From an uncultured Planctomycetales bacterium (GTDB lineage: Bacteria > Omnitrophota > Gorgyraeia > Gygaellales > Profunditerraquicolaceae), in assembly GCA_964579435.1 (NCBI GenBank), contig CAZOGI010000001.1, forward strand, positions 157,907 through 221,906: a stretch of DNA of 64,000 bases. Direction: 5' to 3'. Positions 1-48,285 of this stretch are shown one piece after another; within the stretch, counting starts at the first letter, position 1; each line of letters starts with the position of its first letter. The notes under the pieces are model-generated. The model did no database searches, was not told the DNA's origin, and saw only the letters and a list, made by a program, of their open reading frames with translations. A program made the position numbers and the translations under genes.

Positions 1-480
1 ATAGGGAATAAAGCGTTTGCAGTCAAACGACACCAGCCCCGAGAACTGCCAGTCATCGAGAACCGCTTTGTGCTTGACGACGCCGACATCGATCGAGTGC
101 GGATGGATACTGATGTGCTGAAAGCCGACGGTTGCTTTCAGGCGTTCGCCGGAAAAAGCGGCGTAGCGGAATCCGTAGCCTCCCCCCATATACGTCGGAT
201 AATCCAGTTCGTCCGCCGCCCCGGGGTGCTGCTTGATATATCCCGCCCCGCCCTTGAGGTCGACGCTGAATCGCTGCGTCAATCCGTACGAAAGCAGGAA
301 AAAATCCTGCCACGAGCGCAACTCGCCGGCAGAATGCTCCTGATAGCGGTTCAGGAGCGCATAGCTCTGCAGGCCGATCACGACCTGCCGCTTTTGCGGC
401 TGCGTCGGCCCCATGCAGGGCGCTGCCGTGGCAACCGCGGCCCAGGCCGTCAGAAGAAACCCGATCAGAAAAACCCTCAT
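1..480 (-). CDS. Partial CDS whose 3' end lies beyond the window start: signal-peptide protein, putative outer-membrane beta-barrel-like hypothetical
   Basis: Own translation of the minus strand from ATG at 478-480 gives MRVFLIGFLLTAWAAVATAAP... and stays open for 160 codons to position 1. The start overlaps the stop of the upstream gene as ATGA. It is absent from the ORF track because there is no stop inside the window. The Gly/Tyr/Phe-rich alternating pattern (YPTYMGGGYGFRYAAF) is beta-barrel-like. Confidence 0.5.
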   Translation of the reverse strand, partial: MRVFLIGFLLTAWAAVATAAPCMGPTQPQKRQVVIGLQSYALLNRYQEHSAGELRSWQDFFLLSYGLTQRFSVDLKGGAGYIKQHPGAADELDYPTYMGGGYGFRYAAFSGERLKATVGFQHISIHPHSIDVGVVKHKAVLDDWQFSGLVSFDCKRFIPY

Positions 481-1145
481 TGTCGCTTTCCTGCAGGAAA
501 CCCCCGCAGCGGACACTCCCCGCAGCGCGGATGCTGTTTATGGCAGTATTCTTTCGCGACCCTGACGAACAACGCGTGGTATTCGTTAAATAATTGTACC
601 TCTTTTTTCAGGTTTTTCATGAAAAATTTTTGCGCCTCCTCGTAGGAGACATCCTCCGGCAGCAGACGGTGACGCGCCAGAACGCGTTTCGTGTAGGCAT
701 CGACCACGAAAACCGGGCGGGCGAAGGCATAGAGAAGGATAGAGTCGGCGGTTTCCGGCCCCACGCCGTTGATCCGCAGCAACTCCTCCCGCAACTGCTC
801 CTGCGGCACCTGACGCAGTCGCGTCAGCCGGCCGCCGCAACGCCGCATCAGCCAGCCGAGTGTATTGCGCAGCCGTTGCGCCTTGAGCCGGTAATATCCC
901 GCGGGCCGGATCAACCGCTGCAATCTGCCGGTGCGTATGGATAAAACCCCCCGGAGAGAGAGTGCACGCGCCGCCCTGAGGTTACGGATCGCGCGCTCGA
1001 CGCTACCCCAGTTGGTGTTCTGGGTCAACACCGCTCCGACAATGACTTCGCAGGGGGTGCGCGCCGGCCACCACCCCTGCGGACCAAAATGCCGATAGAG
1101 CAGGCGAAAAAGGGAGCGCACCAGAACCTGTTCCGTGGCCGACAT
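477..1145 (-). CDS. HhH-GPD superfamily DNA glycosylase (endonuclease III-like)
   Basis: Motifs VIVGAVLTQNTNW, INGVGPETADSILLYAF and VFVVDAYTKRV. I prefer the internal ATG (MSATEQVL...) at 1145 over the track start at 1214. Confidence 0.7.
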   Translation of the reverse strand: MSATEQVLVRSLFRLLYRHFGPQGWWPARTPCEVIVGAVLTQNTNWGSVERAIRNLRAARALSLRGVLSIRTGRLQRLIRPAGYYRLKAQRLRNTLGWLMRRCGGRLTRLRQVPQEQLREELLRINGVGPETADSILLYAFARPVFVVDAYTKRVLARHRLLPEDVSYEEAQKFFMKNLKKEVQLFNEYHALFVRVAKEYCHKQHPRCGECPLRGFPAGKRQ

Positions 1146-1149
1146 ACGG

Positions 1150-3111
1150 TTATTCGGAGAACTGCAAGGGGTTATAGCCGTAATAGGCGAAGAGCGTGTA
1201 GGCGGTGCCGGCAACCGAACCAGTGGCTTTACCTTTGGGAGTCACCCAGCCATGGCCGGTATCAACCGACTGTTCCGAGGCATACGGCAGACAACCCTGC
1301 CCTTGTCCCGACGGAGAGGGACTGGAAATAACCATCTTTGCCAACTCATTGAGATAGGCGCTGGCCTTTTCTGCATAGAGCGCGGCCTTCGCGGCCTCGT
1401 TGCGCGAAGCAAAATAGCGCGAGAGGATCTGATACGAAACGACCATCTGGGCGGTCCATTCCGGGGAAACGATGCCGCCGCGGGCCAGGTGCCGCTGCGC
1501 CGCGAAATCAAACCCGCGCACGCGCACCGCCGCTCCCTCCGGGCGCACATAGGAAACCTCGACGCCGCACTGGGTCTCGGCGAACGCCATGATCTCCTGC
1601 GGATCCATGCCCAGCTCGCTGAGCTTTTCCGGTCCGATGCTGGCAATCGACCAGGCATAGGTATCGGTGGCCACCGTAGCATCGCCTTTGCCGCGCTGCA
1701 CCGGAACCTCGCCGCGGTCATAGGTATGCGCCTGGAGCCAGGAGAGCACCCGTTCCGCCGCCTGCTGGTATCGCTCGTGCCCGGTCATACGGCTCAGCAG
1801 ACGGTAAAAAGCGTAGGCATCCAGATTGTGCTCGGTAGCAAACCAGGAGACGTTGGGTCCGCCGCGGATACCGCCGCCGTCATCCTCCTGCTGCAACTGC
1901 AAGATGGCCGCGGCAATCTCCTGCGCCAGCGGCAGAAAGGTCTCGTCACCGGTCTGGCGGGTATACTGCAGCGCCGCGATTCCCAGCCAGATATTGGGTC
2001 CGGCATGCACGACGTATTCCGCAGGCGTCCCGTCGTTGAAATAATAGGCGTTGACGAAGCGGCCGTCGATGCGTTTTGCCCGCTGCGCGAAAAAGGCCAG
2101 GATATTCCGGGCGCGCGCCGCGTCGTTGAAGAGCAGGTACGCCTGCACCGCCAGCGCCTGGTCGTACACGAACGCCCAGCCGCCGACGGCATCGTCCCCT
2201 TCAAAACTCAAGACCAGGCCGGTGCGCGGATTCTGGTGCACCGCCAGCCACTGATACATTTTCTGGATATTGGCCTTCTCCAAGACCGCCTTACGGTGGA
2301 CCAGACGCGCTATCTGGGTGCTCGTCTGCGCCTCATTGGTCCGGACCCGCTGGAGGCGATGCTGCAGGATCGAGCGCTCCGTCAGGAGCTTGCCGATAAG
2401 CGTGTTGAGCTTGCTCAGGCGCTCTTCCTGGCGCAGGGACGAGGTACGCGCCGCCTCCAGATCGTTCAGATGTACCTCCAGCCGCTGCAACTTCTGTTGC
2501 AGATCCGCGCGCGCCGCGCTCAGGGAGTGGATCTGCTGCTCGGCCGCTGAGGTTTCCTGAGAGACTTTGACCAACTGGGAGATGAGCTGCTGGTTGCCGC
2601 TCACCAGCCGCGCGTTCCAAGCCGCGCTCAAAAGCAGACCGGCCCCCAGGAGAACGAAAATCCCGGCCACGATCGGCGCGGTCAACACGCGCGTCCAGGC
2701 AAAACGCAAAAGCATCCTGCCGTCCGCGGCATCGATCTGCTCATAGCGGACGCCGAAGAGATACCGGCCGACCCCGTCGGTATCCTGGCGCATCCAGGCC
2801 GCGGCGCCGCGGGCACTGACCAGGCGCTTGGTGAACGGAGTCTCGATCTCGAGGGAGAATTGTGCCTTCTGGGAAGCGAGCTTTTCTGCGGCGTCGGCGG
2901 AGAAACGGTTAACCGTCAGACAGATCCCGCCTTTACCTATATTGTTGGTGAAACCCTGGAACCACTCGGAGAGAAAATGTTTCCCGTCGCAGCTGACGAG
3001 CCTAAACTCAACCGGCAACACCGTATCCAGACGCAGGTATTGGCGGCGGTTCGACCGGTTGCCGGTGCCGGGCTGCCCCAAAGACTTATGGTCGCTGGCC
3101 GGGATCGTCAT
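1150..3111 (-). CDS. PilZ-domain protein with one TM helix, a coiled coil and a C-terminal (alpha/alpha)6 glycoside-hydrolase-like domain
   Basis: N-terminal PilZ-like motifs RRQYLR and NIGKGGICL. TM segment LTAPIVAGIFVLLGAGLLLSAAW, followed by a Gln/Leu-rich coiled coil. The C-terminal 350 aa resemble a six-hairpin glycosidase fold (WAFVYDQALAVQAYLLFND... NIWLGIAALQY... FATEHNLDAYAFYRLL). ATG at 3109-3111. Confidence 0.6.
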   Translation of the reverse strand: MTIPASDHKSLGQPGTGNRSNRRQYLRLDTVLPVEFRLVSCDGKHFLSEWFQGFTNNIGKGGICLTVNRFSADAAEKLASQKAQFSLEIETPFTKRLVSARGAAAWMRQDTDGVGRYLFGVRYEQIDAADGRMLLRFAWTRVLTAPIVAGIFVLLGAGLLLSAAWNARLVSGNQQLISQLVKVSQETSAAEQQIHSLSAARADLQQKLQRLEVHLNDLEAARTSSLRQEERLSKLNTLIGKLLTERSILQHRLQRVRTNEAQTSTQIARLVHRKAVLEKANIQKMYQWLAVHQNPRTGLVLSFEGDDAVGGWAFVYDQALAVQAYLLFNDAARARNILAFFAQRAKRIDGRFVNAYYFNDGTPAEYVVHAGPNIWLGIAALQYTRQTGDETFLPLAQEIAAAILQLQQEDDGGGIRGGPNVSWFATEHNLDAYAFYRLLSRMTGHERYQQAAERVLSWLQAHTYDRGEVPVQRGKGDATVATDTYAWSIASIGPEKLSELGMDPQEIMAFAETQCGVEVSYVRPEGAAVRVRGFDFAAQRHLARGGIVSPEWTAQMVVSYQILSRYFASRNEAAKAALYAEKASAYLNELAKMVISSPSPSGQGQGCLPYASEQSVDTGHGWVTPKGKATGSVAGTAYTLFAYYGYNPLQFSE

Positions 3112-3133
3112 CGAAAGAGGCCTCGCACGGCGT

Positions 3134-5563
3134 TCATTCCTTCTGACCCTGCGATAGTTTGTTCTGCCGCAGGACTATATGTTGTTTGCACCGGTATGCC
3201 AGGCGCTGCATAAATTCCCTGAATGCCGCGTACTCCGGAAGCGGAACCGTTGATTTCTTACGCACCAGCTCCTGCCTAAAAAATATTGTATTCTTTTTCT
3301 GGCGGTATGCAACCGTAAAAGACAGCCAGGGACTGTCTTCAAAGAAACTCTCCGGAAGCGAAAGGACGCTCAGGCTTGCAGGCAATTCGATCTGGAACTC
3401 ATTCTCCTTGGCTTCCAGGCATTCAAATTCAAGCGGATAGCTGCGCCTGGCCAGGGCGACCGCTGACACATCCAGGGAGGGAAGCTGCGGGATGATGCGC
3501 AGCGATCCGGCGCGCGCGAAATACTCCGGCCCGCGGAAAGAGTACCGCAGCAACGGCGTCTCTCCCAGCCCGGCGGCGTTCCTGGTCTCGTACCGGGACA
3601 GCTGCGCCCCGATAGAAAAATCCTGTATCCTGCCGGCCAGCTCCTGCTCGATGAGCTCCGGGGGCGTGAAGAGGAACCAGTGGCGCATGGCCTGCGCGTT
3701 CAGCCCGTAGGAAAGAACCGTCCGCTCCGCCAAAACCGATTCAGCATCAGCCTGTACCCACAGCTTCAGATCCTGCTTAAGCAGATTGTGGGCGGCCGCA
3801 AACGCCGGCGTCCGCAGGATCCGGTAGCCGTCGGGGCCGCAGAGCAGCACCGTGCGGTCCTGGTCGCCCAGCGGCAGATCCCCGAACGAGCAGGTCTGTG
3901 CCGTCGGATCGAGAAAAACCGTCTCCCCGTCGATCTCGGTGGCGGCGATACAATGGTTAAAGAGCACCGTCGAGAAATCGGCGCGCATGTCGGGCAGCTC
4001 CTTTGTCGGGATAAGCACCGGCCATCCCGGCAGCCCGGCGGCGCGCAGCATCGTCACCAAGAGAACCGCCTGATCTTTACAGTCGCCGTACTTGTTGCGG
4101 AAGATATCGGCGGCGGCGTGCGGCTCATACCCGGCCTCGCCGTATTCGACCGCGACATAGCGGATCTCCTGCGCACAATACTCGTAGAGCGCCTCTGCGC
4201 GTTCCCGCGGCGAACGCGCAGAACGCAGGAGCTCCCCGATTTTAGCCTGGATCGCCTCGTCCGCCCGGATCTTATCCTTCGCCAGATTCCACCACCACTC
4301 GTACACCTCCTGCCAGTCGTCAAACGTCGACAACAACACCGTCGGATTGATCCGGGCCTCCTCGGGCATGAGCGGCTCGGGAATGATCTGGGGGATATCC
4401 GCCATCACCCACTCATAGGCCGGCCCCCGCGCGGTCTCGGTTACGACCGGCTGCATCTTTACCCCGAAAGAGTTGTATTCCTCGTTGAGCAGGAGCGAAG
4501 AGAGCCTGCGTCCCGGAGGCAGGCTGACCTGAAGCGCCGCGCGCATGATCGGCTCACCCGACTGCACCGGATAGCGCAGCACAAAATCCTTGCCGTTGAT
4601 GAGCTCGTGCGAGACGATACGCGCCCGGTACTCGACGACCGAACCGACCGCCACTTCGGGGAAAGAGATGATGAGAACGCGCGCGTTGCTGTAGAGGGGG
4701 AAATTCAGGTACTTCGAAACGTCCCGCAGGTGCCTCGTCCCGACGTCGACGACCGTCCCGTCGGGCTTGATCGTGCGGGCATACTCCAGCTCTATCTTTT
4801 CGTACGTCGAATCGTACTCGAGGGGCAGCTCCGAGAATGCCTCTTTGCCGCGCTCGTTGAGGATCTTAATGACGTAATGCAGGCTCGTCTCCTGGCCGTT
4901 GCCGGGGCCGACGCTTAAACGTTCGTCACAGAGCAGGATGAGGGCGCCCGCCTGCGGGTACCGCTCTTTCCCCGGGGCTGCGGCGATCAAGGCGCTGATC
5001 TCGGGAGCGGCATCTCTGATATGAACCAGTCCCATTTGGCGTTCGATCGCGCCGATGCGCTCGGCGGCCCGGCCGGCAAATGCGGGTTGGGTGATCAAAC
5101 GGTAGTGCTGCAACGCCTGATCAAAGAGGTTCAGTTTCTCGGCGGTGAGGGCGCGGAAATATCGCATTTCTTCGTCAACGGGATCGTGCGTGCGCAACAC
5201 CTCCAGGGCATCGGTATACTGCCCGAGCCGATACAGCGTTATCCCCAGGTATTTGCGTGCCTCGGGCAGTGCGCTTTGACGCAGATGCTCCAGGGCTTTC
5301 TCGAACTCCGCGTGATCGAAATAGAGCCTCCCCAGCGCCGCATGCGTGCGGTCGGTATCGATGCCGCGGAGCAAACCTTCCTGATAGCCTGCAACCGCTT
5401 GACGGTAATAGGACGCCGAAACCTCCGCCAAACGAGCGGGAGAAGCGAGTCGTTCCTGACGGCAGCCGCCGGCGCAGCAGAAAAATGCCCCCAGCAGGAA
5501 CGCGCTCCCCAGAAGAACGCCCCGCTTTTTTCCCCCGAAGCGATTACGTAACGCGGTATTCAT
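3134..5563 (-). CDS. Transglutaminase-like (DUF3857-type) lipoprotein with N-terminal TPR repeats
   Basis: The internal ATG at 5561-5563 (MNTALRNRFGGKKRGVLLGSAFLLGAFFCCAGGC, a lipobox-like signal) is chosen over the 922-aa track ORF. TPR-like segment LGRLYFDHAEFEKALEHLRQ. Transglutaminase core Cys in YGDCKDQAVLLVTMLRAAGLPGWPVLIPT. Confidence 0.6.
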   Translation of the reverse strand: MNTALRNRFGGKKRGVLLGSAFLLGAFFCCAGGCRQERLASPARLAEVSASYYRQAVAGYQEGLLRGIDTDRTHAALGRLYFDHAEFEKALEHLRQSALPEARKYLGITLYRLGQYTDALEVLRTHDPVDEEMRYFRALTAEKLNLFDQALQHYRLITQPAFAGRAAERIGAIERQMGLVHIRDAAPEISALIAAAPGKERYPQAGALILLCDERLSVGPGNGQETSLHYVIKILNERGKEAFSELPLEYDSTYEKIELEYARTIKPDGTVVDVGTRHLRDVSKYLNFPLYSNARVLIISFPEVAVGSVVEYRARIVSHELINGKDFVLRYPVQSGEPIMRAALQVSLPPGRRLSSLLLNEEYNSFGVKMQPVVTETARGPAYEWVMADIPQIIPEPLMPEEARINPTVLLSTFDDWQEVYEWWWNLAKDKIRADEAIQAKIGELLRSARSPRERAEALYEYCAQEIRYVAVEYGEAGYEPHAAADIFRNKYGDCKDQAVLLVTMLRAAGLPGWPVLIPTKELPDMRADFSTVLFNHCIAATEIDGETVFLDPTAQTCSFGDLPLGDQDRTVLLCGPDGYRILRTPAFAAAHNLLKQDLKLWVQADAESVLAERTVLSYGLNAQAMRHWFLFTPPELIEQELAGRIQDFSIGAQLSRYETRNAAGLGETPLLRYSFRGPEYFARAGSLRIIPQLPSLDVSAVALARRSYPLEFECLEAKENEFQIELPASLSVLSLPESFFEDSPWLSFTVAYRQKKNTIFFRQELVRKKSTVPLPEYAAFREFMQRLAYRCKQHIVLRQNKLSQGQKE

Positions 5564-6638
5564 AGGAAATGGCACAACTCCCTTCCCGGGAGACCATACA
5601 CGGCCCCAGCGGAGACTGCGGCCTACAGCGGCGCGCGAACAACGGGCAGCGCGGCGGATCGAGCTTTCCCCGCAACACCGCAGCACAGCGACAGCCTTCC
5701 CGGGGAGAAACCGGCTGCCTCTGCCTCCGCAGCGCAACGGCATGCCGGGCATCAAAATGAGCGAATTGCGCCCGGAAAGAGAATCCGCTTTCCGCGATAG
5801 AGCCGAACCCGCGCCAGACCGCAGCTTTCGGTTCGAAGACGCGATCCAGGATGCGCTGGGCATGCACATTACCCTGTGGCCGCACGACCCGGCTATATCC
5901 ATTCTCGACCCGCGCGATGCCGCGGCGCAACTGCCGCAACAGCGTCAAGATCCCGCAGAGCATATCCGCAGGCTCAAACCCGGCCACACAACAGCCGATG
6001 CCGTACGTCCGGGCAAACGGCTCATACGCGCGCGTCCCGATAATAACCGACACATGCCCGGGACAGAGGATGCCGCTGATATCGACACCCTTGCCGCGCG
6101 CCAGGAACGAGAGGACCGGCGGGATACGCTTGAGCGCGTTGAGAAAAAAAAGGTTCCCGACCTTCTGGCGGCTGGCCTGCAAAACCGCCAGCGCCACTGC
6201 CGGGGCAGTTGTTTCGAATCCGACACCCAAAAAGACAATCTTTTGTCGCGGATTCTCCCGCGCCAGGGAGAGAGCCTCCAGCGGCGAATAGACCGTGCGA
6301 ATCCGGGCACCGGCTGCACGCGCCGCGGCAAGACTGCCAAAACTGCCCGGGACCAGCAGCATGTCCGCGAAGGTCGCCACCTGAACCCCGGGCGAGCGGG
6401 CATAGGCGATCGCCGTATCGATATAGCGTTGGTCGCTGACGCAGATCGGACAGCCGGGACCGGAGACCAGGCGGACCGTCTTCGGCAGATACCGGTTCAG
6501 GCCGAAGCGGTGGAAGGCGCGGGTATGCGTCCCGCAGACCTCCATCAGGACCGCCGGTTCCCGCGGCGCAAAGCGCTGCAGAAGCCCTCCGAGCCGTTCC
6601 AGATGCCGCGGGGAGCGGAACTCGTCAACAAATCTCAC
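5544..6638 (-). CDS. hypD: Hydrogenase maturation factor HypD
   Basis: N-terminus MRFVDEFR..., then LMEVCGTHT, GPGCPICV, and a C-terminal Cys cluster. GTG start at 6636-6638. Overlaps the hypC stop. Confidence 0.85.
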   Translation of the reverse strand: MRFVDEFRSPRHLERLGGLLQRFAPREPAVLMEVCGTHTRAFHRFGLNRYLPKTVRLVSGPGCPICVSDQRYIDTAIAYARSPGVQVATFADMLLVPGSFGSLAAARAAGARIRTVYSPLEALSLARENPRQKIVFLGVGFETTAPAVALAVLQASRQKVGNLFFLNALKRIPPVLSFLARGKGVDISGILCPGHVSVIIGTRAYEPFARTYGIGCCVAGFEPADMLCGILTLLRQLRRGIARVENGYSRVVRPQGNVHAQRILDRVFEPKAAVWRGFGSIAESGFSFRAQFAHFDARHAVALRRQRQPVSPREGCRCAAVLRGKLDPPRCPLFARRCRPQSPLGPCMVSREGSCAISYEYRVT

Positions 6639-6834
6639 GTAACACCCTCAGGGTCTCGGCGGCCCGCCGGGGATCGATCTTCTCGATGGCGAAACCGGCA
6701 TGGACCAGAACATACTCCCCGACCGCGACGCCCGGGACCATGGCGATGTTTATCCGTCGCTGCAGCCGCCCGGCAGCGACCGTGGCAAACGAGCCCTCTT
6801 TACTGACGATCTTCAACGGAACGGCAAGGCACAT
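6625..6834 (-). CDS. hypC: Hydrogenase assembly chaperone HypC/HupF
   Basis: N-terminal MCLAVP motif, 69 aa, directly upstream of hypD. Confidence 0.85.
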   Translation of the reverse strand: MCLAVPLKIVSKEGSFATVAAGRLQRRINIAMVPGVAVGEYVLVHAGFAIEKIDPRRAAETLRVLREIC

Positions 6835-6837
6835 ATC

Positions 6838-7983
6838 TTAACCCTGGAAAGAAGAAAACCGGCTCTTCGGTGAACAGGAAGCGATGACCGCCTGCCCGAG
6901 GGAGACCGACGCGTCCCCCGCGGGAAGCCGGCGATGCACCCGCACGCAAAACCCCGCTTTATATAGTAACGCACCCAGGTGCTCCCGCACAAGGGTATTG
7001 TGCATGACCCCGCCCGCAGCCACCACCGTGTTGATTCCCGTTCTGGCGCGCAGGCGCACGCATACCGCCGCAGCAAGGTGCGCCACGGAATAGTGCAGCG
7101 CGGCCGCAATATCCGCGCGGCTTTGTTTGGCCTTCAGGTCAACGACGATCCCGCGCACGATCCCACCGAGGGCAACCTCCAGGCATCCTGCACGTTCCCG
7201 CAGGCGGTACGGATACAGCCGCGGCGGGTTCCGGCTGCGGCGGGCCAGCGCTTCGAGTGCCCGCGGCAGCTGCGCCTCGGCGCACGAATCCCGGCAACAC
7301 AGGATGATGCTCGCCGCGGCATCAAAAAGACGCCCGGCGCTGCTGGAGAGCGGCGACGCAAATCCGCTGGCAGCCAGCGCCAGAACCGCCCGTGCTTTTT
7401 TGCGGGGAAGGCCTTTTAAAAAACTCAAGCCCTGCCGCCACAGACGCTCGCCGTAGAGACGCTGCAGCCATACCAAAGCCACCCGCCACGGCTCCCGGAT
7501 CGCCGCTTCTCCTCCGGGCAGAACAACAGTCTCAAGGTGCCCGGCGCGGATATAGCTGCGGTAATCGCAGATCAAAAACTCTCCTCCCCACAGCGTGCCG
7601 TCGCTGCCGTACCCGGTGCCGTCAAAAGCGATGCCGATCACCCGGCGGTTAGGCAGGCCGCTTTCGGCCATAGCCGCAGCGATATGCGCGTGGTGATGCT
7701 GGACGCGGACCAGGGCCACCCGGCGCCGGGCCGCCACCTCCTGCGCGTACCGGGACACGCTATAGCCTGGATGCAAATCCGCCGCCAGAACGTGCGGCCC
7801 CCTCTGCATCCACCGACGGACCGCTTCCCTGAAGCGCACGCGCTGGCGATACTCGCTGCAGTCGCCGTGGAGACGCGAGAAAGAGGCGGACCGGCCGGAG
7901 GCGAAACAGAGGGTATTTTTCGTTTCGGTGCCGAAGGCCAAAACCGGGGTCGGAACCGGGAAAGGCAGCGCAAGCCTATGCAT
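6838..7983 (-). CDS. HypF-like carbamoyltransferase, Kae1/TsaD-like C-terminal domain only (no acylphosphatase, Zn-finger or YrdC domains)
   Basis: AFGTETKNTLCFASG matches the start of the HypF Kae1-like domain. Histidine-rich HHHAHIAAA and GGVMHN motifs. The start was moved to the internal ATG (MHRLALPF) at 7983. Adjacent to hypC and hypD. Confidence 0.6.
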   Translation of the reverse strand: MHRLALPFPVPTPVLAFGTETKNTLCFASGRSASFSRLHGDCSEYRQRVRFREAVRRWMQRGPHVLAADLHPGYSVSRYAQEVAARRRVALVRVQHHHAHIAAAMAESGLPNRRVIGIAFDGTGYGSDGTLWGGEFLICDYRSYIRAGHLETVVLPGGEAAIREPWRVALVWLQRLYGERLWRQGLSFLKGLPRKKARAVLALAASGFASPLSSSAGRLFDAAASIILCCRDSCAEAQLPRALEALARRSRNPPRLYPYRLRERAGCLEVALGGIVRGIVVDLKAKQSRADIAAALHYSVAHLAAAVCVRLRARTGINTVVAAGGVMHNTLVREHLGALLYKAGFCVRVHRRLPAGDASVSLGQAVIASCSPKSRFSSFQG

Positions 7984-8818
7984 CGTTTCCCTCCGCAGCC
8001 ACCAGCTCCAACGAAACGATCGCATCGACCCGGAACGTCCGCTCGGCACCGCGCAGCAGGCAATGCCCGCGCACGTACGAAACGCCGTTTTCCTTGAGGA
8101 TCTGCTGCGGCACGATCAAACGTTGGCTGAGCGGGCCGCCGCTTTTCGCCAAGTAGCGAATCGCAAGGCGCGCCCCGTCGTCGATCGCCTCCTGGATGCG
8201 CGAGATCTTTTCCTGTTCGCGGGCAGCCAAAGCGCTGTGGGGAAGCGCACAAAGATCCAGGAACGTATCGGTATCCCTGATGCCTTTTGCCTGCAGCAGA
8301 CCAAGCAGGGCCAGAAAAACACGCGCGGTCAACTCCACATCCGCTCCGGCGCGGTGCGCCTGAGGAATGCCCAGGCCCAGCGCCTGCGCCACCGCCTGCA
8401 GCGAATAGCGCTCCTGTCCCGGCAAGAGCCGGCGCGCCAGCCGCAGGATATCCGCCACTATCATCTCTGCCGGTTCCGCCAACCCTGCCGCTGCAAGCTC
8501 GGCGCGCAAAAACGCCAGGTCAAAACGGGCGTTGTAGGCGCAGACGCAGCTGCCCTGGATAAAGCGCAGAAACTCCGGCAGCACCGCGCGGCAGACGGGC
8601 TTGCCCGCCAGCATTGCGTCGCTGATATGGTTGACCGCGAAGGCGGCCGGCGACACCGGGCGTTGCGGATCGATGAGTGTTTCAAAAACCGCCTCGGTCA
8701 CGTCCCCGCGCAGACGCAGTGCCGCCAACTCGACGATACGGTCTCCCGTCTCCGGATTCAGTCCGGTCGTCTCGGTATCGAATATGGTAAAAACGGTACG
8801 GTCAAGCGCCTGTCCCAT
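7976..8818 (-). CDS. DnaQ-like 3'-5' exonuclease (DEDDh) fused to a C-terminal WYL-like domain
   Basis: Exo I motif FDTETTGL, then YNARFDLAFL and HRAGADVELT. C-terminal LAIRYLAKSGGPLSQRLIVPQQILKENGVSYVRGHCLLRGAERTFRVDAIVSLELV matches the WYL consensus (the ...RtFrldRI.. motif). Confidence 0.6.
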   Translation of the reverse strand: MGQALDRTVFTIFDTETTGLNPETGDRIVELAALRLRGDVTEAVFETLIDPQRPVSPAAFAVNHISDAMLAGKPVCRAVLPEFLRFIQGSCVCAYNARFDLAFLRAELAAAGLAEPAEMIVADILRLARRLLPGQERYSLQAVAQALGLGIPQAHRAGADVELTARVFLALLGLLQAKGIRDTDTFLDLCALPHSALAAREQEKISRIQEAIDDGARLAIRYLAKSGGPLSQRLIVPQQILKENGVSYVRGHCLLRGAERTFRVDAIVSLELVAAEGNDA

Positions 8819-9710
8819 GCCCCGGATACGCTACAAACGCCGGAATTAAACGCAGCGGACGGTACGATCTCTTGACCGCTCGCAGGTTCTCCAGTCCGGA
8901 ATCGTCCATAACGTTGATAAACGGATACGCGCGGAGTTCCGCGCAGAGCTCGCGGAAGATATATTGGGCCGCCCCCTTCAACGCAAGGTCGGTGAATTCA
9001 AAGAGGACGCAGAATGTCCGGGGGCTCAAGGCCACCCCGAAGGTGAAGGCGCAGAGTATGCCGTCGGCCGTCGCCACCCGGCCGATGCCCCCGAGTTTTT
9101 CAAAACCATCCAGGAGCACCCGCAGGCAACTGAAGGTGTCCTCGAGCATGCCCCGGTAAAGCGGATCGCTGCTGCGCTCCCGGCGCTGGCACATCCACCG
9201 CTGAAAGAGGCGTACGCATTCCTGCCGGTCGCTGCCCCGGTACGGCCGGTACTGCGCCCGGCAGTGTTTGACGAAATAATTGTACGCGGCGCGCTTTGAT
9301 TTATAGGCGTTGCCCGTCAGCCGGGCAAGACAGGAGCGATCGCAGACGTACTCCCCGGATTTCTCGCTGCAAGAAAACCCGCCTTCGGCAAACAACGCAC
9401 GTTCCGGAGCTTCGATATTCTCGATCCGGGTAACGCCGCTTTCGCCGTTTATCCGGCGCAGGCGCTCACCCGCAGTACGCGCCGCCACGATCCTCTTGCC
9501 CTTACCCAGCGGTGGCAGAAAGAGGAACGCGCCGACGCGGTCCCGGAAAAACACGCACAGCTGTTCGTCGATGAGCTGCCATTCTATGCGATAGAGCTCT
9601 TGCCAGATAAAAATGGAAGCGAAGGCGTACGCGGACAATTCGTGTTCGCGCTCACCCAGAAACAAAGAAAAAGTCCGACGATGCGCATACTGCAGCTTAT
9701 GCAGGCTCAT
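8802..9710 (-). CDS. DUF2156 domain protein (homolog of the C-terminal aminoacyl-tRNA-dependent transferase domain of MprF/LysX)
   Basis: GNAYKSKRAAYNYF motif plus overall pattern. 302 aa, stand-alone. The family assignment is from memory, not a search. Confidence 0.5.
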   Translation of the reverse strand: MSLHKLQYAHRRTFSLFLGEREHELSAYAFASIFIWQELYRIEWQLIDEQLCVFFRDRVGAFLFLPPLGKGKRIVAARTAGERLRRINGESGVTRIENIEAPERALFAEGGFSCSEKSGEYVCDRSCLARLTGNAYKSKRAAYNYFVKHCRAQYRPYRGSDRQECVRLFQRWMCQRRERSSDPLYRGMLEDTFSCLRVLLDGFEKLGGIGRVATADGILCAFTFGVALSPRTFCVLFEFTDLALKGAAQYIFRELCAELRAYPFINVMDDSGLENLRAVKRSYRPLRLIPAFVAYPGHGTGA

Positions 9711-10203
9711 GCGGGATATCCAGCTCGATAAGCTCCAAAACGTCCTCGTACGCCTGGATGATCTGCGGATTTTCGCTCAGGAGCCTGCGGTAGGCGCGGG
9801 AATTGAGCAGTTCGGTCAGCGAGGAGACATGCGCCTTGAACGCCGGCTGCGCCAGCCGGGAGGCGACATACGGGCAATTCAGGTCGACCGTCAATACCAC
9901 GCGCTTCTTGCGTACATTCAGCAGAAACGGATACAACTGGCATTCAAATGGCCGGGTCGCGTAGACCTTGCATTTGTTCGAAGCGCGCTCAAGGAACGGA
10001 CACCAGAAATATCCCGCGCTCTCGTCGGGCACCAGGACCAGCCGCTTATCCGGCGAGATCGAAACGGCGGGGGCGGCGGCGTCGACAAAGGAGAGGATCT
10101 CCTCCTCCAGCAGACAGGGCGCCCATGCCGAATGCGCCTCCCGGAACCGACAGCATCCCTGGCAGGAAAGGCAGACCTGCGACGGAACGAATTGCGGGAT
10201 CAT
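9697..10203 (-). CDS. YkgJ-family Zn/Fe-S cysteine-cluster protein (UPF0153)
   Basis: CLSCQGCC and CPFL...C...C cysteine spacing. 168 aa. Overlaps both neighbours. Confidence 0.55.
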   Translation of the reverse strand: MIPQFVPSQVCLSCQGCCRFREAHSAWAPCLLEEEILSFVDAAAPAVSISPDKRLVLVPDESAGYFWCPFLERASNKCKVYATRPFECQLYPFLLNVRKKRVVLTVDLNCPYVASRLAQPAFKAHVSSLTELLNSRAYRRLLSENPQIIQAYEDVLELIELDIPHEPA

Positions 10204-10520
10204 TTAACCACGCTGCCGACGGCGACCTTCTTTTCCGGAGTCACGATAACCGGACCGCTCTCACCCGATGCAGCCAGGAGCATCCCCTGGCTTTCGACAC
10301 CTCGCAGCATCGCGGGCTCCAAATTGTCGACCAGCACGACCTGCCTGCCGATCAGGGAGTCCTTGTCATAGGCGTTGCGGATCCCCGCAACGACCTGTTT
10401 GCTGCGGCCGCCGACGTCCAACGTTATAACGTAAAGCCGGTCTGCGTTCGGATGCTCAGTGACCGCGGTAATCTCGGCAATACGCAGCTCAAGCTTTTTA
10501 AAATCATCGATCGTGATCAT
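10200..10520 (-). CDS. tRNA-binding protein (CsaA/Trbp111-like EMAP/OB-fold domain; MetG C-terminal-like)
   Basis: LRIAEITAVTEHPNADRLYVITLDVGG...QVVAGIRNAY, 106 aa. GGAGGGGGT sits upstream of the ATG. Confidence 0.65.
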   Translation of the reverse strand: MITIDDFKKLELRIAEITAVTEHPNADRLYVITLDVGGRSKQVVAGIRNAYDKDSLIGRQVVLVDNLEPAMLRGVESQGMLLAASGESGPVIVTPEKKVAVGSVVK

Positions 10521-10544
10521 ACCCCCTCCGGTGCCCCGCTGCCG

Positions 10545-12068
10545 TTAGAACGTCCATTCCAAAGACAACTCTACCTGGTAAGCCGCATCCGCCTTTGCGT
10601 CTCCCCGCACGAAAGGGGTCAAAAGGCTCCCGTCGACGTCATCGCGCCGCTCCCGGTAAAAATTCCCGGGGATAAAGTAACCGGCAAGCAGGCTTACCAG
10701 GGCGCGTTCGTTCATTTGATAATCGAGCGTCACATCCACTTCATAGCCCAGCTCTGCCGAGAGCGCGCGCGGCTCCCCTTCCCACATGCCGACCCCCCGG
10801 GCAAAACAACGAAGATAGTATCCCTGCACCGTCACCAACACCGCATCGGTGAGGGATACCTCACAGCCCAGAGAAGGCATCAGCAGATTATCGTAATCAG
10901 ACGCCCCGAAGGTCCCGGGACGGGGAACCCCGTAATTGAGACCCCACCCGCTGCCCATTGCCACCAGCGGCTTGGCATCGCAGCTCTCCTGGCCGATGGA
11001 GTCGCCCTGGGCCTGATTGAGCGACGAGAAGACGCTGAACGCCCGGTTTTTGCCGCGGGAGAGTGTCGCATCTTGCGCCAACACTTCCTCCTCGGTAACG
11101 GCGTTGCCGGAACAGACGAGGAATTCCCCGAACGGGACGACCCGTTCTTTCCCGTAGGCTACCCTGCCGTATACCAGATATCCCTGATGCTGAATATCCT
11201 TAAAGGAGGGGTCGCCGCTTTGGGCAACCCCGAAATTGCGGGCGCACTCCGCCTTGAACGCAAAAGGCGCAGCCTCATAGGTCAGGGCAAACCCTGCGGT
11301 GCCGAGGATATCGTGCTTTACCGGCGCGCCCCAGAGCGAATCGCGTTTGCCGGCCGCAGTATAATCGCTTAGTACCCCGCAGTACGGCTGCAGCCACAGC
11401 CGCTCCCTGCGCCAGGAGAGATCAGCTGCCCAGAAGTTGATCGCCCCCGGATGGTAATCAATCCCTTGCTCCTCGTCCTGACGGATACGCGCACCGAGAT
11501 GGTTTTTCAGGTGCGCGTCCGGCCGGCAGTAGTAGAGGTGCCAGGAGAACGGCTCCGCCTCGCGGTACAATTTCACGCCGATGTTCTCATAACTGCCGTT
11601 GAGGCTCATCCCCAGTCCGACGACATAGCTCGTCAGGCCGGCCTGGACCCGGAAACGGTCCCGCCAGGGCACATCCACCCACAACTCCTCCAACTGCGGG
11701 AGAAGCTCATCGTCACGGTACGCCTCGATGCGGCCGCCCGACGTCAAAAGAGCATTGCTTACCCACAGCGGCGCCGAATAATCGAACGGCCCGTTGCGTT
11801 CTATCTTCAGATATGCCCGCAGGCCATCGTCTTTGTGCGTATACCCCAACCCCAGGCTGTAATCAAACCCGATCGACGCGCTGCGGTCATCGGTGTTGCG
11901 ATGATCGAGGTCCACCGTATTCTCGAAAGTCACCGCATCCGTGCGTTGATACAGCTGCAGGGTCACCTCGGCCCGGGGCGTATCCATAACCGTCAAAGCC
12001 TGCGCGCCGCCTCCGCCGGCACACAGCACCCCCGCCAGACCAAAAACAAGAAAAACTGCCCGCCGCAT
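10545..12068 (-). CDS. Putative outer-membrane beta-barrel protein (alginate-export/porin-like)
   Basis: Signal peptide MRRAVFLVFGLAGVLCAGGGGAQA. Alternating aromatic/Gly beta-strand pattern. C-terminal ...LEWTF aromatic terminus. Confidence 0.4.
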   Translation of the reverse strand: MRRAVFLVFGLAGVLCAGGGGAQALTVMDTPRAEVTLQLYQRTDAVTFENTVDLDHRNTDDRSASIGFDYSLGLGYTHKDDGLRAYLKIERNGPFDYSAPLWVSNALLTSGGRIEAYRDDELLPQLEELWVDVPWRDRFRVQAGLTSYVVGLGMSLNGSYENIGVKLYREAEPFSWHLYYCRPDAHLKNHLGARIRQDEEQGIDYHPGAINFWAADLSWRRERLWLQPYCGVLSDYTAAGKRDSLWGAPVKHDILGTAGFALTYEAAPFAFKAECARNFGVAQSGDPSFKDIQHQGYLVYGRVAYGKERVVPFGEFLVCSGNAVTEEEVLAQDATLSRGKNRAFSVFSSLNQAQGDSIGQESCDAKPLVAMGSGWGLNYGVPRPGTFGASDYDNLLMPSLGCEVSLTDAVLVTVQGYYLRCFARGVGMWEGEPRALSAELGYEVDVTLDYQMNERALVSLLAGYFIPGNFYRERRDDVDGSLLTPFVRGDAKADAAYQVELSLEWTF

Positions 12069-12096
12069 ATCAGCCTCCCGTGAACGGGCTGCGTTC

Positions 12097-12468
12097 CTAT
12101 TGCAGATATTTGCGGATAAACCGGAAGAGCTCTTGCCACTGGAACGGCTTTATAAAGTAATCCTTGGCGCCGAAGGCCATCCCCTCCTCGATATACTGGG
12201 TCTGGCCTTTGGCCGTCACCATGATAACCGGGATCTCGTGGGTGGCATCATGGGCCTTGAGCTGCCGCAGGAGCGTCAATCCGTCCGGGTGCGGCATGAG
12301 GATATCCAGGAGGATGAGGTCCGGCCGCTCTTGGACCGCCAGGGCGAGCGCTTCGGAGGAGTTGGTGGCGCAGATCGCCCGGTACCCTTCGCGCTCCAGG
12401 CGTTCCCGCATGAGCGAGACCACCTCTGGTTCGTCGTCGATCACCAGCAGCGTGTACGGTTTCTTCAT
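12097..12468 (-). CDS. Stand-alone response-regulator receiver domain (CheY-like)
   Basis: The internal ATG gives MKKPYTLLVIDDEPEV...LILLDILMP...VIMVTAKG, 123 aa. The start overlaps the stop of the upstream radical SAM gene by 4 nt. Confidence 0.7.
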   Translation of the reverse strand: MKKPYTLLVIDDEPEVVSLMRERLEREGYRAICATNSSEALALAVQERPDLILLDILMPHPDGLTLLRQLKAHDATHEIPVIMVTAKGQTQYIEEGMAFGAKDYFIKPFQWQELFRFIRKYLQ

Positions 12469-13877
12469 CTGCCTCGCAACAGCATCTTGGCCAAACCCCA
12501 GGCTGCCTGCATATTGAGCCTGAACCGGTTGAGACTGCGCATGCGCAGGAACTCCCTGACGATCTTGGACGGACGCAGATAAAAAGAACGGTATGCCCGG
12601 TGCTGCCATGCCAGCAACTCCTCCGGAGTCAACCCCGGGAGACGATGGATCGGCGGCGTATGGATCCCGAAACGGCGGTAATCGCGGGTCAGGATCGCGT
12701 CTTTGCTCAGGAGGAAATCGTACACCTCGCTTCCGGGATAGGGCTTCAGGATATGGAATTTGGCGATGTCCGGATCGAGCTCTTGGGCAAAGGATATCGT
12801 CTGACGGATCGAATCGGGGGTCTCCGCAGGCAACCCGATCATAAAAAACCCCCACAGCTCCAGGCGTAATTCCCGCGCCAGCGCGAACACCTCTTTGAGC
12901 CGGGCGATGTGCGTTCCCTTATGCGCCGCGTCCAGAACCTCCTGGCTGCCGGATTCCACCCCGATAGCCAGACTGTAGGTCCCCATCTCCTTGAGCGCCG
13001 TTAATACCTCGCGCGAAAGAAAATCGGCGCGGATCCCGTTGGGAAAGGCGAAACAGACCTTGAGCTTGCGCCGCTGGATCTCGTCGCGGATGGCGAAGAC
13101 CCGTTGGCGGTCGGTCGTGAAATTGTCGTCCCAGACATGGATCTCGCGGATACCGTAGCGGCGCACCAACTGTTCGATTTCATCGGCAACCCGCAGCGCG
13201 CTGTGCGCCCGGAAGACCCGGCCGCAAACCCGGTGTGACATGCAGTAGCTGCACCGGCCGGGACAGCCGCGGCTGGTCATGATCGGCGCGGTCCGGCGGT
13301 AAAGCGCGTCGGGATACGTGTAGTGGGTGACCGAAAAAAGGTGCCGTGCCGGAAAGGGCAACCGGTCCAGATCCGTCAGAAGCGGACGCGCTTCATTTTC
13401 GACAATACCCCCGGTTTCGTCCTTGTATGAGAGCCCGCGCACGCCGGCATAAGAACCCCCGGCCTTCAGACAATCAACCAGCTCCCGCAGCGTCTCCTCC
13501 CCTTCCCCGCGCACGACCATATCGACCGCCGGATTCCGCAACACCTCCCGCGGCAGGATCGTCGGATGCGTTCCCCCGAAAACGACGCGGGTCTGCGGAC
13601 TGTATCGCTTGACCGCGGCAGCCAGGTCAAACGCGGTAAAGAGCAGCGGGGTCGTGACGGTGCAGCCGAAAAGGTCGAAACGTTCGGCGCGGATCAGCGC
13701 GACAAAATCGTCGAGCGTCAGGCGCTGGGCCTCCATATCCACCACGCGCACCTCTTCCTGCAGGAGCATCGCCGCCAGGTAGGCCAGTCCCATATGCAGC
13801 TGCACCGGGGAGCGCATCGGCCCGTAGATATCGCTGGCGGGGGGATTGACCAGCAGGATGCGTACGTTCTTTTTCAT
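12465..13877 (-). CDS. B12-binding-domain radical SAM protein
   Basis: N-terminal B12-binding-like MKKNVRILLVNPP... Radical SAM MTSRGCPGRCSYCMSH CxxxCxxC-type cluster. ATG at 13875-13877. Confidence 0.7.
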   Translation of the reverse strand: MKKNVRILLVNPPASDIYGPMRSPVQLHMGLAYLAAMLLQEEVRVVDMEAQRLTLDDFVALIRAERFDLFGCTVTTPLLFTAFDLAAAVKRYSPQTRVVFGGTHPTILPREVLRNPAVDMVVRGEGEETLRELVDCLKAGGSYAGVRGLSYKDETGGIVENEARPLLTDLDRLPFPARHLFSVTHYTYPDALYRRTAPIMTSRGCPGRCSYCMSHRVCGRVFRAHSALRVADEIEQLVRRYGIREIHVWDDNFTTDRQRVFAIRDEIQRRKLKVCFAFPNGIRADFLSREVLTALKEMGTYSLAIGVESGSQEVLDAAHKGTHIARLKEVFALARELRLELWGFFMIGLPAETPDSIRQTISFAQELDPDIAKFHILKPYPGSEVYDFLLSKDAILTRDYRRFGIHTPPIHRLPGLTPEELLAWQHRAYRSFYLRPSKIVREFLRMRSLNRFRLNMQAAWGLAKMLLRGR

Positions 13878-13897
13878 CGTGGCAGAGGAGGCGTCGT

Positions 13898-13935
13898 TAA
13901 AAAAAACTCCGCACAAAACGTGCGGAGTTTTTTGT
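13898..13935. terminator. Bidirectional rho-independent terminator
   Basis: Perfect 9-bp stem actccgcac/gtgcggagt with a 5-nt loop, flanked by an A8 run upstream and a T6 run downstream, so it functions on either strand. Lies between the entericidin-like gene and the radical SAM gene. Confidence 0.6.
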
Positions 13936-14014
13936 TCGGCTTGCGTTTACCCCGTAAAACCACAGCGGAATAGGCGTTTCCCGCGCGCGGCGCGGCGCGG
14001 GAAGAAAAACGGAC

Positions 14015-14173
14015 TTACCACAAATGTTCCCGCATCCAGGCGTCGGCCTCCTGCAGATTGACGTTGGTGTTCTCGATGTCCTTCGCGGCACCTTTCATTG
14101 TCTCGCAACCGGCAGACAAAAAGAGGCAGCCGAGCACAAACAAAAGCGCCAACCCTGTTGCCCTTCTTCTCAT
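14015..14173 (-). CDS. Small entericidin-like lipoprotein (EcnA/EcnB family), 52 aa
   Basis: Own translation: MRRRATGLALLFVLGCLFLSAGCETMKGAAKDIENTNVNLQEADAWMREHLW. The lipobox LSAGC followed by ETMKGAAKDIE matches the entericidin pattern. Its ATG overlaps the gltX TGA (ATGA). Below the ORF-track size cutoff. Confidence 0.45.
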   Translation of the reverse strand: MRRRATGLALLFVLGCLFLSAGCETMKGAAKDIENTNVNLQEADAWMREHLW

Positions 14174-15474
14174 ACGCCGCTCCTTTGTATCCATCGTTCG
14201 AGCCGCTCCTCGGTACGCGCCCTTCCCAGACAGGCAATGGTCTCAAACAGGCCCGGGCCAACCGTTTTTCCGGTCAGCACGACCCGCAAAGGATGAACCA
14301 GTTCCCGCGCCTCGATCTTCAGCTCACCCACGAGGCCCCGGAACGTCTCTTCGATCGAAATGGCATCCCAATGCGCCAGTCCGTTGAGGCGCTCGCGCAA
14401 CAGACTCAGCGCTTCGGACCAGTCTCTCTTTAGATACTTCTGCCGCGCCTGCTCCTCGATGGCGTAATCGTCGCGGAAGAAAAAATCGGCACGGCCGGGA
14501 AAATCGGTTAAACGGGTAAGCCGTTCTTTGAATAATTGTACCAAAGAAACCAGATAGTTTCTATCAAATTTATCGGGTGAGAGCAATCCCGCTCCTTCCA
14601 ACAGCGGCAGGAGCATCTCCGCCAGCTGCTGCGGATCAGCGGCGCGGATATACTGGTTGTTCATCCAGTCCAGCTTCTTCATATCGAAAGTCGCGGCGGT
14701 CTTGTTCACGGCACGGATATCGAAGAGGCGAACCGCCTCTTCGGGAACGATGATCTCCCGGTCGTCCTTGGGAGACCAGCTCAAAAGCAAAAGATAGTTG
14801 ACCAGGGCCGCCGCCAGATATCCCATCTGGCGGTATTCCGAGATCGCCGTCGCACCGGTGCGCTTGGAGAGGCGCCCCCCCTCGATACCCATGATCAGCG
14901 GCAGATGCGCAAACGCCGGGAGGTCGAAACCGAGAGCCTCATAGAGGAGCACCTGCTTGGGGGTGTTGGAGATGTGATCGTCTCCCCGGATGACATGGGT
15001 GATCCCCATGAGCGCGTCGTCGACGACACAGGCGAAATTGTAGGTCGGGGTGCCGTCGGACTTGATCAAGACCTGATCCTTGATCACGCCGGAGTCAAAC
15101 GAAATTTCGCCGCGGATCAGGTCTTTGACGACGATCGGGCGCGGGACGACCTTGAAGAAGATCGCCTCGCCTTTGCCTTCGGTCGTCTGAAGATACGCCG
15201 CGCCCTCCCGAAGGAGGCGTTCTGCCTGCTGGCGGTAGAACGCAACGCGCTGGCTCTGGAAAAACAGCTCGTCCCAGGAAAACCCCAGCCACGTCAGGCT
15301 CTGCAGGATCTCGTCGACATACTCCTGTTTGGAGCGCGCCTGGTCCGTATCCTCGATGCGCAGGATAAACGTTCCCTTCTGCGCGCGCGCATAGAGCCAG
15401 TTGAAGAGCGCAGTGCGCGCACCGCCGATATGCAGGAATCCGGTAGGGCTGGGAGCGAACCGAACGCGGGTCAT
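14170..15474 (-). CDS. gltX: Glutamate--tRNA ligase
   Basis: RFAPSPTGFLHIGGARTA (HIGH region), RLSKR (KMSKS-like), 434 aa. Confidence 0.85.
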   Translation of the reverse strand: MTRVRFAPSPTGFLHIGGARTALFNWLYARAQKGTFILRIEDTDQARSKQEYVDEILQSLTWLGFSWDELFFQSQRVAFYRQQAERLLREGAAYLQTTEGKGEAIFFKVVPRPIVVKDLIRGEISFDSGVIKDQVLIKSDGTPTYNFACVVDDALMGITHVIRGDDHISNTPKQVLLYEALGFDLPAFAHLPLIMGIEGGRLSKRTGATAISEYRQMGYLAAALVNYLLLLSWSPKDDREIIVPEEAVRLFDIRAVNKTAATFDMKKLDWMNNQYIRAADPQQLAEMLLPLLEGAGLLSPDKFDRNYLVSLVQLFKERLTRLTDFPGRADFFFRDDYAIEEQARQKYLKRDWSEALSLLRERLNGLAHWDAISIEETFRGLVGELKIEARELVHPLRVVLTGKTVGPGLFETIACLGRARTEERLERWIQRSGV

Positions 15475-41526: not shown

Positions 41527-41530
41527 TGCA

Positions 41531-42385: not shown

Positions 42386-42393
42386 CCGCATCC

Positions 42394-43200: not shown

Positions 43201-43273
43201 TTAATTTCAAATAGTTACAAATTGTTCCACGCGGAACATTTTGATTGCCCTTGATTCTTTATCTATTGTCCTT

Positions 43274-45023: not shown

Positions 45024-45039
45024 TGTTTGCCTTTATGCG

Positions 45040-45393: not shown

Positions 45394-45419
45394 TTTGCTC
45401 TCCCTCGGTAAGTGGCAAC

Positions 45420-47038: not shown

Positions 47039-47185
47039 TTGCAGGGGGTATACACAGTCCTTTTTTGTGGTAACTTTTTTAATAGGTGTGAGATCGGAGG
47101 TTTTAAACAGGAATGTAACCGCATTACTATAATACGATTACTATTTTTTTAAAATTACTTATTAATAGTAGAAAAGGAGTGGTTG

Positions 47186-48277: not shown

Positions 48278-48285
48278 GGCGTCGC

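Follow-up and report, generated by a model that had tools for sequence, protein, structure and literature searches.

A short, Kae1-only HypF beside HypC and HypD in a conserved gene-order block of Omnitrophota: probable genes of [NiFe]-hydrogenase maturation

The window analyzed here, a stretch of 64,000 nucleotides from contig CAZOGI010000001.1 of an uncultured, Omnitrophota-like bacterium, carries a short hypF followed by hypC and hypD, three genes of the kind known from [NiFe]-hydrogenase maturation. In the textbook synthesis of the cyanide ligands, the three active sites of HypF are connected, and two labile intermediates are channelled between them. The HypF of the window is a single Kae1-like domain, and the initial annotation of the sequence described the three genes as an orphan set embedded among unrelated genes. 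The evidence presented below indicates that they probably belong to a working maturation pathway and that the short HypF appears to be the usual form in this phylum.

The Hyp Genes of the Window

The three genes lie in a tight run of minus-strand genes that extends from window position 1 to ~16000. We will use the term “short hypF” for the first of them (hypF' in gene orders), and the loci of relatives are coded L001 and so on. Lengths are given in amino acids (aa).

6838-7983, minus strand: short hypF, 381 aa, stand-alone Kae1-like carbamoyltransferase domain (Pfam HypF_C and HypF_C_2, TIGR00143)
6625-6834, minus strand: hypC, 69 aa, chaperone of the Fe(CN)2CO assembly complex (HupF_HypC, TIGR00074)
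5544-6638, minus strand: hypD, 364 aa, Fe-S scaffold protein (Pfam HypD, TIGR00075)

hypD and hypC overlap by 14 nt. The initial annotation called both of them canonical, and this is borne out by the family scores and by the key residues, all of which are kept. The hypD product scores 437.7 bits against Pfam HypD and 412 bits against TIGR00075 (cutoff 192.8), and along its full length it shares 42% identity with E. coli HypD. It retains all eight key cysteine and histidine residues (E. coli C41, H44, C69, and C72, and C323, C336, C343, and C360 of the [4Fe-4S] cluster), as well as the GFETT and PGHVS motifs. The hypC product scores 88 bits against HupF_HypC (cutoff 28.5) and 71.2 bits against TIGR00074 (cutoff 48). 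Its N-terminus, MCLAVP, contains Cys2, and the conserved histidine that corresponds to E. coli His51 is present in VLVHAGFA.

Pfam scans of ~55 open reading frames (ORFs) covering the window identified no hypA, hypB, hypE, hydrogenase subunit, maturation protease, or YrdC-domain protein; the scanned ORFs are mostly housekeeping genes, including the replication-origin cluster dnaA-dnaN-dciA-gyrB-gyrA. Searches of the 64 kilobases (kb) by tblastn with E. coli HypA, HypB, HypE, HycE, HycG, and HycI, and with HoxG, HoxC, and HoxK of Cupriavidus necator, likewise gave no match. The only genes that the hydrogenase and Hyp queries detected in the window are hypC, hypD, and the short hypF, and the statement of the initial annotation that the 64 kb hold no hypE, hypA, hypB, or hydrogenase genes therefore stands. 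A promoter and terminator scan of positions 1-14500 was uninformative, with counts close to the shuffled expectation.

Domain Content, Active Site, and Fold of the Short HypF

The short HypF matches HypF_C (84 bits) and HypF_C_2 (228 bits) and no other HypF domain of Pfam. It covers positions 382-740 of the 741-position TIGR00143 model and aligns with residues 382-739 of E. coli HypF. Its TIGR00143 score of 248.2 bits is below the cutoff of 466.1 because only this half of the model is covered. An acylphosphatase domain gave no Pfam or NCBIfam match in the protein, and the zf-HYPF zinc-finger motifs are absent both from the protein and from the whole window. The YrdC-like domain is also absent from the protein, and no scanned ORF of the window matches Sua5_yciO_yrdC. 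Pfam, TIGR00143, and the alignment with E. coli HypF thus agree with the initial annotation that only the C-terminal Kae1 domain is present and that the acylphosphatase, zinc-finger, and YrdC domains are lacking.

The called start codon is supported in two ways. The exonuclease-WYL gene upstream ends in a stop codon that the ATG at 7983 overlaps (ATGCATAG), and the protein aligns from residue 1 with homologues of ~375 aa. As a result, the missing domains cannot be hidden upstream, where there is no room for them and where the DNA encodes the exonuclease-WYL protein. The alignments of the window protein, of two Omnitrophota relatives (the L069 protein and protein P0057), and of C. necator HypF1 all start at E. 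coli HypF residue ~381-390, which is the YrdC/Kae1 junction.

The active site is intact. In a multiple alignment, the metal ligands His96, His100, Asp121, and Asp357 correspond to His475, His479, Asp502, and Asp727 of E. coli HypF. Across 31 homologues that are only ~43% identical, 50 columns are invariant, including those of the HHHxH, DGTG.G, and WGGEF motifs. The GC content at third codon positions (GC3) is normal for coding in this frame, at 0.74. The protein probably catalyzes carbamoyl transfer.

The closest solved structures by sequence are HypF proteins (3vth, with an E value of 1.6e-50, 3tsp, and 4g9i), and TsaD is matched only at E 0.003. An AlphaFold2 model of the short HypF has a mean predicted local distance difference test score (pLDDT) of 89.8 and a predicted template modelling (TM) score of 0.88. 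Foldseek superimposes this model on the Kae1 domain of the solved HypF 3vth with a TM-score of 0.87 and a root-mean-square deviation of 2.2 Å, compared with a TM-score of at most 0.58 for TsaD/Kae1. Based on these sequence and fold matches, the protein is a HypF-type Kae1 domain and is neither a TsaD nor a NodU/TobZ protein.

These two other identities were rejected on family scores as well. For TsaD, PF00814 gives 23.3 bits (cutoff 24.8) and TIGR03723 gives 28.5 bits (cutoff 296.1), and the structural TM-score is 0.58. For NodU/TobZ, neither Carbam_trans_N nor Carbam_trans_C is matched, and the BLASTP hit to a NodU-like protein of L089 has an E value of 0.002 over 47 residues.

Short HypF Across Omnitrophota

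The best 120 homologues in a collection of 5.8 billion proteins are ~43% identical to the window protein, and all of them are 354-432 aa long and carry only the two C-terminal Pfam domains of HypF. Every organism name given among them is Candidatus Omnitrophota or Omnitrophica. The short form, of ~375 aa, also occurs in all Omnitrophota-type loci found, and a full-length HypF was seen neither in any Omnitrophota locus examined nor among the top homologues. Genome contigs were scanned in addition with a profile made from the short HypF alignment. The matches listed are mostly full-length proteins of other phyla, which were used as an outgroup and not for statistics on Omnitrophota; at least 70 HypFs from other phyla are among the matches listed, all of them full length (740-1029 aa). 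Labels such as “hypothetical” or “FGGY-family kinase” are common among these ~375-aa proteins.

When Kae1 domains are compared in a neighbour-joining tree (91 sequences, 380 columns), the short HypFs of Omnitrophota group in a single clade, in which the window protein and the L069 protein are early branches. The bootstrap support of this clade is moderate (61/100), and strict monophyly is therefore not claimed. HypF1 of C. necator clusters with E. coli HypF and is placed with the Omnitrophota clade in only 2/100 bootstraps, so the Omnitrophota and C. necator truncations are independent.

A Conserved Gene-Order Block and the Expected hypE

The genes on both sides of hypF'-hypC-hypD are the following.

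10200-10520, minus strand: tRNA-binding protein (Pfam), upstream part of the conserved block
9697-10203, minus strand: CxxCxxCC protein (Pfam), upstream part of the conserved block
8802-9710, minus strand: DUF2156/LPG_synthase_C protein (Pfam), upstream part of the conserved block
7976-8818, minus strand: DEDD exonuclease-WYL protein (Pfam), upstream part of the conserved block
3134-~5560, minus strand: TPR-DUF3857-transglutaminase (TG) protein (Pfam), downstream part of the conserved block
1150-3111, minus strand: PilZ-like protein, 653 aa (Pfam), downstream part of the conserved block
477-1214, minus strand: HhH-GPD glycosylase (HhH; Pfam), downstream part of the conserved block
1-516, minus strand: unknown protein, cut by the window edge, downstream part of the conserved block

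These flanking genes (1-5560 and 7976-10520) are context only, with nothing to suggest a role of the upstream ones in maturation. Their arrangement is common to nine independent Omnitrophota loci, L001/L089, L002/L003, L004, L007, L009, L016, L090, L091, and L092. The shared order begins with an outer-membrane protein, followed by the genes for the tRNA-binding, CxxCxxCC, DUF2156, and exonuclease-WYL proteins, in some loci by a PabB-PabC pair, and then by the short hypF. It continues with hypC, hypD, TG, the PilZ-like gene, HhH, the unknown gene, an M20 peptidase, PAC2, in some cases a HAD gene, and hypE. On the relatives' contigs the protein identity along the block is 41-76%. The upstream part has the same order in L001, L003, L004, L007, L009, L016, and L090, at 41-68% identity, with the exonuclease-WYL gene absent from L009. 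The downstream part is 43-62% identical to that of the relatives and keeps their order.

hypE lies 5-9 kb after hypD in seven of the seven block-type loci that extend far enough. The protein in question, with AIRS and AIRS_C domains, aligns with E. coli HypE and is annotated as HypE in the sources. It carries an FSTDS...GDIGKL motif, which we take to be shared with E. coli HypE, and in L009 it ends in LPRIC, the carbamoylation site. The truncated ORF at the edge of the window and the unknown gene of L001 encode products that are 62% identical, and the match to the block therefore extends as far as the window does. Most likely, the window ends about three genes, or ~2.5-3.5 kb, before the expected hypE, which is predicted to lie at that distance beyond position 1 in this genome. 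Two exact probes of 42-45 nt (window positions 20-64 and 341-382) had no match in the genome and metagenome contig collections, and the exact sequence of the short HypF has no record there either.

These comparisons change two points of the initial annotation. The genes look like orphans largely because of the position of the window edge, since the block relatives that extend far enough carry a canonical hypE 5-9 kb after hypD. The neighbours described as unrelated form a conserved gene-order block of Omnitrophota.

Some further features of the block were observed. HypE is unusually conserved in block-type Omnitrophota (~67-78% identity), compared with ~40-45% for the short HypF nearby in the same set (L009 and L089-L092). 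The contig of L016 (CAYOMI010000028.1) is labelled “uncultured Planctomycetales” and yet has the block from the outer-membrane protein through the tRNA-binding, CxxCxxCC, DUF2156, and exonuclease-WYL genes to the short hypF, which suggests that it is mis-binned or mislabelled. A pair of PabB-like (chorismate-binding) and PabC-like (aminotransferase class IV) genes recurs beside hyp genes in Omnitrophota. It is located just before the short hypF in block-type contigs (L001 7825-9998; L003 1984-4224; L004 7772-10011), just after hypE in L069 (6525-8855), and 3.7 kb after hycI in L093 (14156-16424). The pair is absent from the window and from L090.

Link to [NiFe] Hydrogenases

In two relatives, the short HypF is encoded within a classical group-4 [NiFe]-hydrogenase operon. 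The order in L069 is MrpD/E/F/G, a 4Fe-4S ferredoxin, the HycI protease, HypA, short HypF, HypC, HypD, HypE with an LPRIC end, PabB, and PabC. In L094 (Omnitrophica bacterium RBG_13_46_9), the operon starts with NADHdh, the small subunit, Complex1_30kDa, the [NiFe] large subunit, and Mrp subunits, and continues with a ferredoxin, HycI, HypA, short HypF (with an assembly gap inside), HypC, HypD, and HypE.

A different arrangement is found in L093 and L097-L099, which were identified through close homologues of the HycI of L069. Here, a hydrogenase-Mrp-ferredoxin-hycI(-hypA) unit is followed by unrelated genes, with no adjacent hypF'CDE. Separate placement of hypF'CDE therefore occurs in the phylum, and in those genomes the four genes must lie elsewhere. 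The presence of [NiFe] hydrogenases of groups 3b, 3d, 4f, and 4g has been reported in Omnitrophota (PMC8542988; PMC10066038). In the supplement of Seymour et al. (2023), the KEGG list of one genome includes K04651 (hypA) and K04653-K04656 (hypC, hypD, hypE, and hypF).

The HypA encoded beside hycI is only 80 aa long and matches positions 1-66 of the 112-position Pfam HypA model (L069 2937-3179; L094 10458-10700; L097 10458-10700); its C-terminal part therefore seems to be missing. A hypB gene was seen at none of the Omnitrophota loci examined.

Proposed Function and Alternatives

Based on these observations, we consider it likely, with a probability of roughly 0.7, that the three genes function in [NiFe]-hydrogenase maturation in an Omnitrophota-like bacterium, and that they are not orphans and not a degraded fragment. 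Most simply, they can be read as an ordinary set of maturation genes located away from the structural operon. Elsewhere in the genome, we predict genes for the hydrogenase, along with hycI and hypA (plus hypB, if there is one).

In full-length HypF, the acylphosphatase site hydrolyzes carbamoyl phosphate, the YrdC site makes carbamoyl-AMP, and the Kae1 site carbamoylates the HypE cysteine (PMC6022934; PMC9654439). The short HypF would be a carbamoyltransferase of the Kae1-like type that, like C. necator HypF1, stands alone, and it would perform only the last step, the transfer of the carbamoyl group to HypE's C-terminal cysteine. Given its single domain and the literature on HypF1, we infer that carbamoyl-AMP is supplied by another protein, with a separate YrdC-fold enzyme such as TsaC/Sua5 or a NodU/TobZ-type carbamoyltransferase as candidate donors. 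HypE would then dehydrate the carbamoyl group to a thiocyanate, and the cyanide would be handed to the iron held by the HypC-HypD complex, which would build the Fe(CN)2CO unit destined for the large subunit of the hydrogenase.

A gene for a NodU/CmcH/TobZ-type carbamoyltransferase (563 aa, Carbam_trans_N and Carbam_trans_C) was observed at 12180-13871 of L089, 1.2 kb downstream of hypE-abpE on a contig of 1.19 Mb. The protein is a candidate donor because enzymes of this type make carbamoyl-AMP. The gene is absent at the corresponding place in L090, L091, and L092.

Several points weigh against a role of the three genes in hydrogenase maturation as proposed here. In full-length HypF the intermediates are channelled inside the protein and carbamoyl-AMP is labile (PMC6022934), and a HypF N-terminal half that might act as the donor was found near none of the 13 Omnitrophota loci. 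C. necator HypF1 is inactive in E. coli lacking hypF (PMC5350229). The 64-kb window of this genome contains no hypE, hypA, hypB, maturation protease, or hydrogenase gene, and the flanks of the nine block loci, up to ~10 kb per side, contain no hydrogenase gene. None of the best 120 HycI homologues lies on a long block-bearing contig, including the one of 1.19 Mb, although this is a weak test. Finally, some Omnitrophota genera have been reported to possess only [FeFe] hydrogenases (PMC8542988).

The initial annotation offered a choice between a split HypF and repurposed Hyp chemistry. In a split HypF, the acylphosphatase, zinc-finger, and YrdC half would be encoded elsewhere and would pair with the Kae1-only protein as a two-subunit enzyme. 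The clean domain boundary, exactly at the YrdC/Kae1 junction, is what such a division would leave, and a dedicated docking partner would suit an intermediate as labile as carbamoyl-AMP, which normally passes through a channel from one domain to the other. However, nine N-terminal halves used as tblastn queries (E<=0.01) gave no match either in the 64-kb window or at 13 Omnitrophota loci, each covering up to ~20 kb. These loci include the compact operon of L069, in which hycI-hypA-hypF'-hypC-hypD-hypE are contiguous, and gene calls and ORF reading found no such half in L094 either. The hyp1 operon of C. necator is likewise without a gene for an N-terminal half beside HypF1. This option is thus without positive evidence in the window and the 13 loci, and we regard it as unlikely. 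The repurposed option, which holds that the block-type hypF'CD and hypE are housekeeping genes that make a cyanide/thiocyanate iron cofactor, or S-carbamoylate, for a target other than a [NiFe] hydrogenase, is also unlikely. It draws on the deep conservation of a block of unrelated housekeeping genes with no hydrogenase in the flanks of the nine loci, on the unusual conservation of block-type HypE (~70% vs ~43% for the short HypF), on the absence of the best 120 HycI homologues from the long block-bearing contigs, and on the Omnitrophota reported as [FeFe]-only. Set against this, the canonical residues are all kept in HypC, HypD, and the Kae1 site, the HypE of the relatives ends in PRIC, and the same protein clade is physically linked to a [NiFe] large subunit, hycI, and hypA in L069 and L094. 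The phylum also has hydrogenase operons without adjacent hypF'CDE that need these genes from elsewhere, and no alternative target is apparent. Repurposing is therefore disfavoured by the canonical motifs and the hydrogenase-operon relatives.

It would be far more improbable still that the short hypF is what is left of a decaying full-length gene, or that it arose as an artefact of assembly or gene calling. The TIGR00143 score below the full-length cutoff (248 vs 466 bits) could be taken in that sense, but it is explained by the protein spanning only half of that model. Over 120 distinct homologues are of this length and have the invariant columns in common, the ATG overlaps the end of a conserved gene upstream, the GC3 is that of normal coding sequence, and the structure model is confident. 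The reading as a remnant or artefact is effectively refuted by this conservation.

Returning to the maturation pathway, an entire candidate phylum appears to use the Kae1-only form as its standard HypF, and possibly as its only one, including in hydrogenase operons. A more far-reaching proposal, which we put forward as quite unlikely, is that Omnitrophota may have dispensed with the three-site HypF in favour of a stand-alone Kae1 transferase fed by an unrecognized source of carbamoyl-AMP (for example, a second role of TsaC/Sua5 or a NodU-like enzyme) or, more radically, that the block-type hypF'CD...E serves a target other than a [NiFe] hydrogenase. There is also a lesson for annotation, in that short HypFs often go under other labels and a 64-kb window can make a dispersed hyp set look orphaned.

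Other Features of the Window

Ahead of the tRNA-binding gene, a probable outer-membrane protein of 507 aa is encoded at 10545-12068, and it is conserved as the leading gene of the block in L007 and L016. Upstream of it, a small response-regulator receiver protein has a long ORF (12097-12510), with which the gene for a B12-binding radical SAM protein (12465-13916) overlaps.

The replication-origin region occupies positions 41500-53500, with parB, parA, and yidC on the minus strand and dnaA (45674-47038), dnaN, dciA, gyrB, and gyrA on the plus strand. The minimum of the cumulative GC skew is near 46-47 kb. Patches of very low GC content (34-43% in a genome of ~61% GC) are present in yidC (44000-45000), at the start of dnaN (47000-47500), and in gyrB (50000-50500). 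Two very large plus-strand ORFs have no Pfam match, one at 56285-61489 (1734 aa) and one at 61646-64000 (at least 784 aa), which runs off the window. Giant ORFs have been reported in Omnitrophota (PMC10066038).

Comparison with Known Systems

By comparison with canonical HypF (E. coli HypF and the structures 3tsp, 3vth, and 4g9i), the Kae1 fold and active site of the window protein are alike, with TM-scores of 0.83-0.87 and 28-34% identity in structure alignments. Of the usual genomic partners, hypC and hypD adjoin the gene in the window, and hypE and hydrogenase genes were seen only in relatives. The difference lies in the first ~380 residues, with the acylphosphatase, zinc-finger, and YrdC-like domains, which the window protein does not have; this leaves it with one of the three active sites and without the internal channel.

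A Kae1-fold transferase that receives its substrate from another protein is known from t6A synthesis, where the acyl-adenylate is delivered by a separate YrdC-fold protein (PMC9654439). The TsaC/TsaD (Sua5/Kae1) pair may thus serve as a mechanistic analogy for the supply of carbamoyl-AMP, although the acceptor here would be a protein cysteine, whereas that of TsaD is tRNA A37. NodU, CmcH, and TobZ combine Kae1-like and YrdC-like domains and act through carbamoyl-AMP (PMC9654439). The window protein differs from them in having neither Carbam_trans_N nor Carbam_trans_C.

The closest precedent, which the initial annotation left out, is HypF1 of C. necator (Ralstonia eutropha) H16, encoded in the hypA1B1F1CDE operon of pHG1. 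HypF1 is a Kae1-only HypF of 394 aa, compared with 381 aa here, and is 33% identical to the window protein over 373 residues. Both proteins start at the same boundary (E. coli HypF residue ~381-390) and share the HHHAH...DG(T/V)G...GD metal site, and both genes are directly upstream of hypC-hypD. HypF1 has been described as having one of the three domains, such that it “likely requires carbamoyl adenylate” (PMC9100943). However, the truncation arose independently in the two lineages (2/100 bootstraps with the Omnitrophota clade), and C. necator also has full-length HypF copies, of which none was seen in the Omnitrophota loci or among the top homologues. In C. necator, hypE is part of the hyp operon, whereas in the block relatives it is six or seven unrelated genes away from hypD. 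The Omnitrophota protein is thus an apparently phylum-wide, independently derived member of an already known Kae1-only type. HypF1 had been a single exception, with full-length paralogues in the same cell; if the distribution in Omnitrophota is confirmed genome-wide, the source of carbamoyl-AMP becomes testable in a natural system without a full-length backup HypF.

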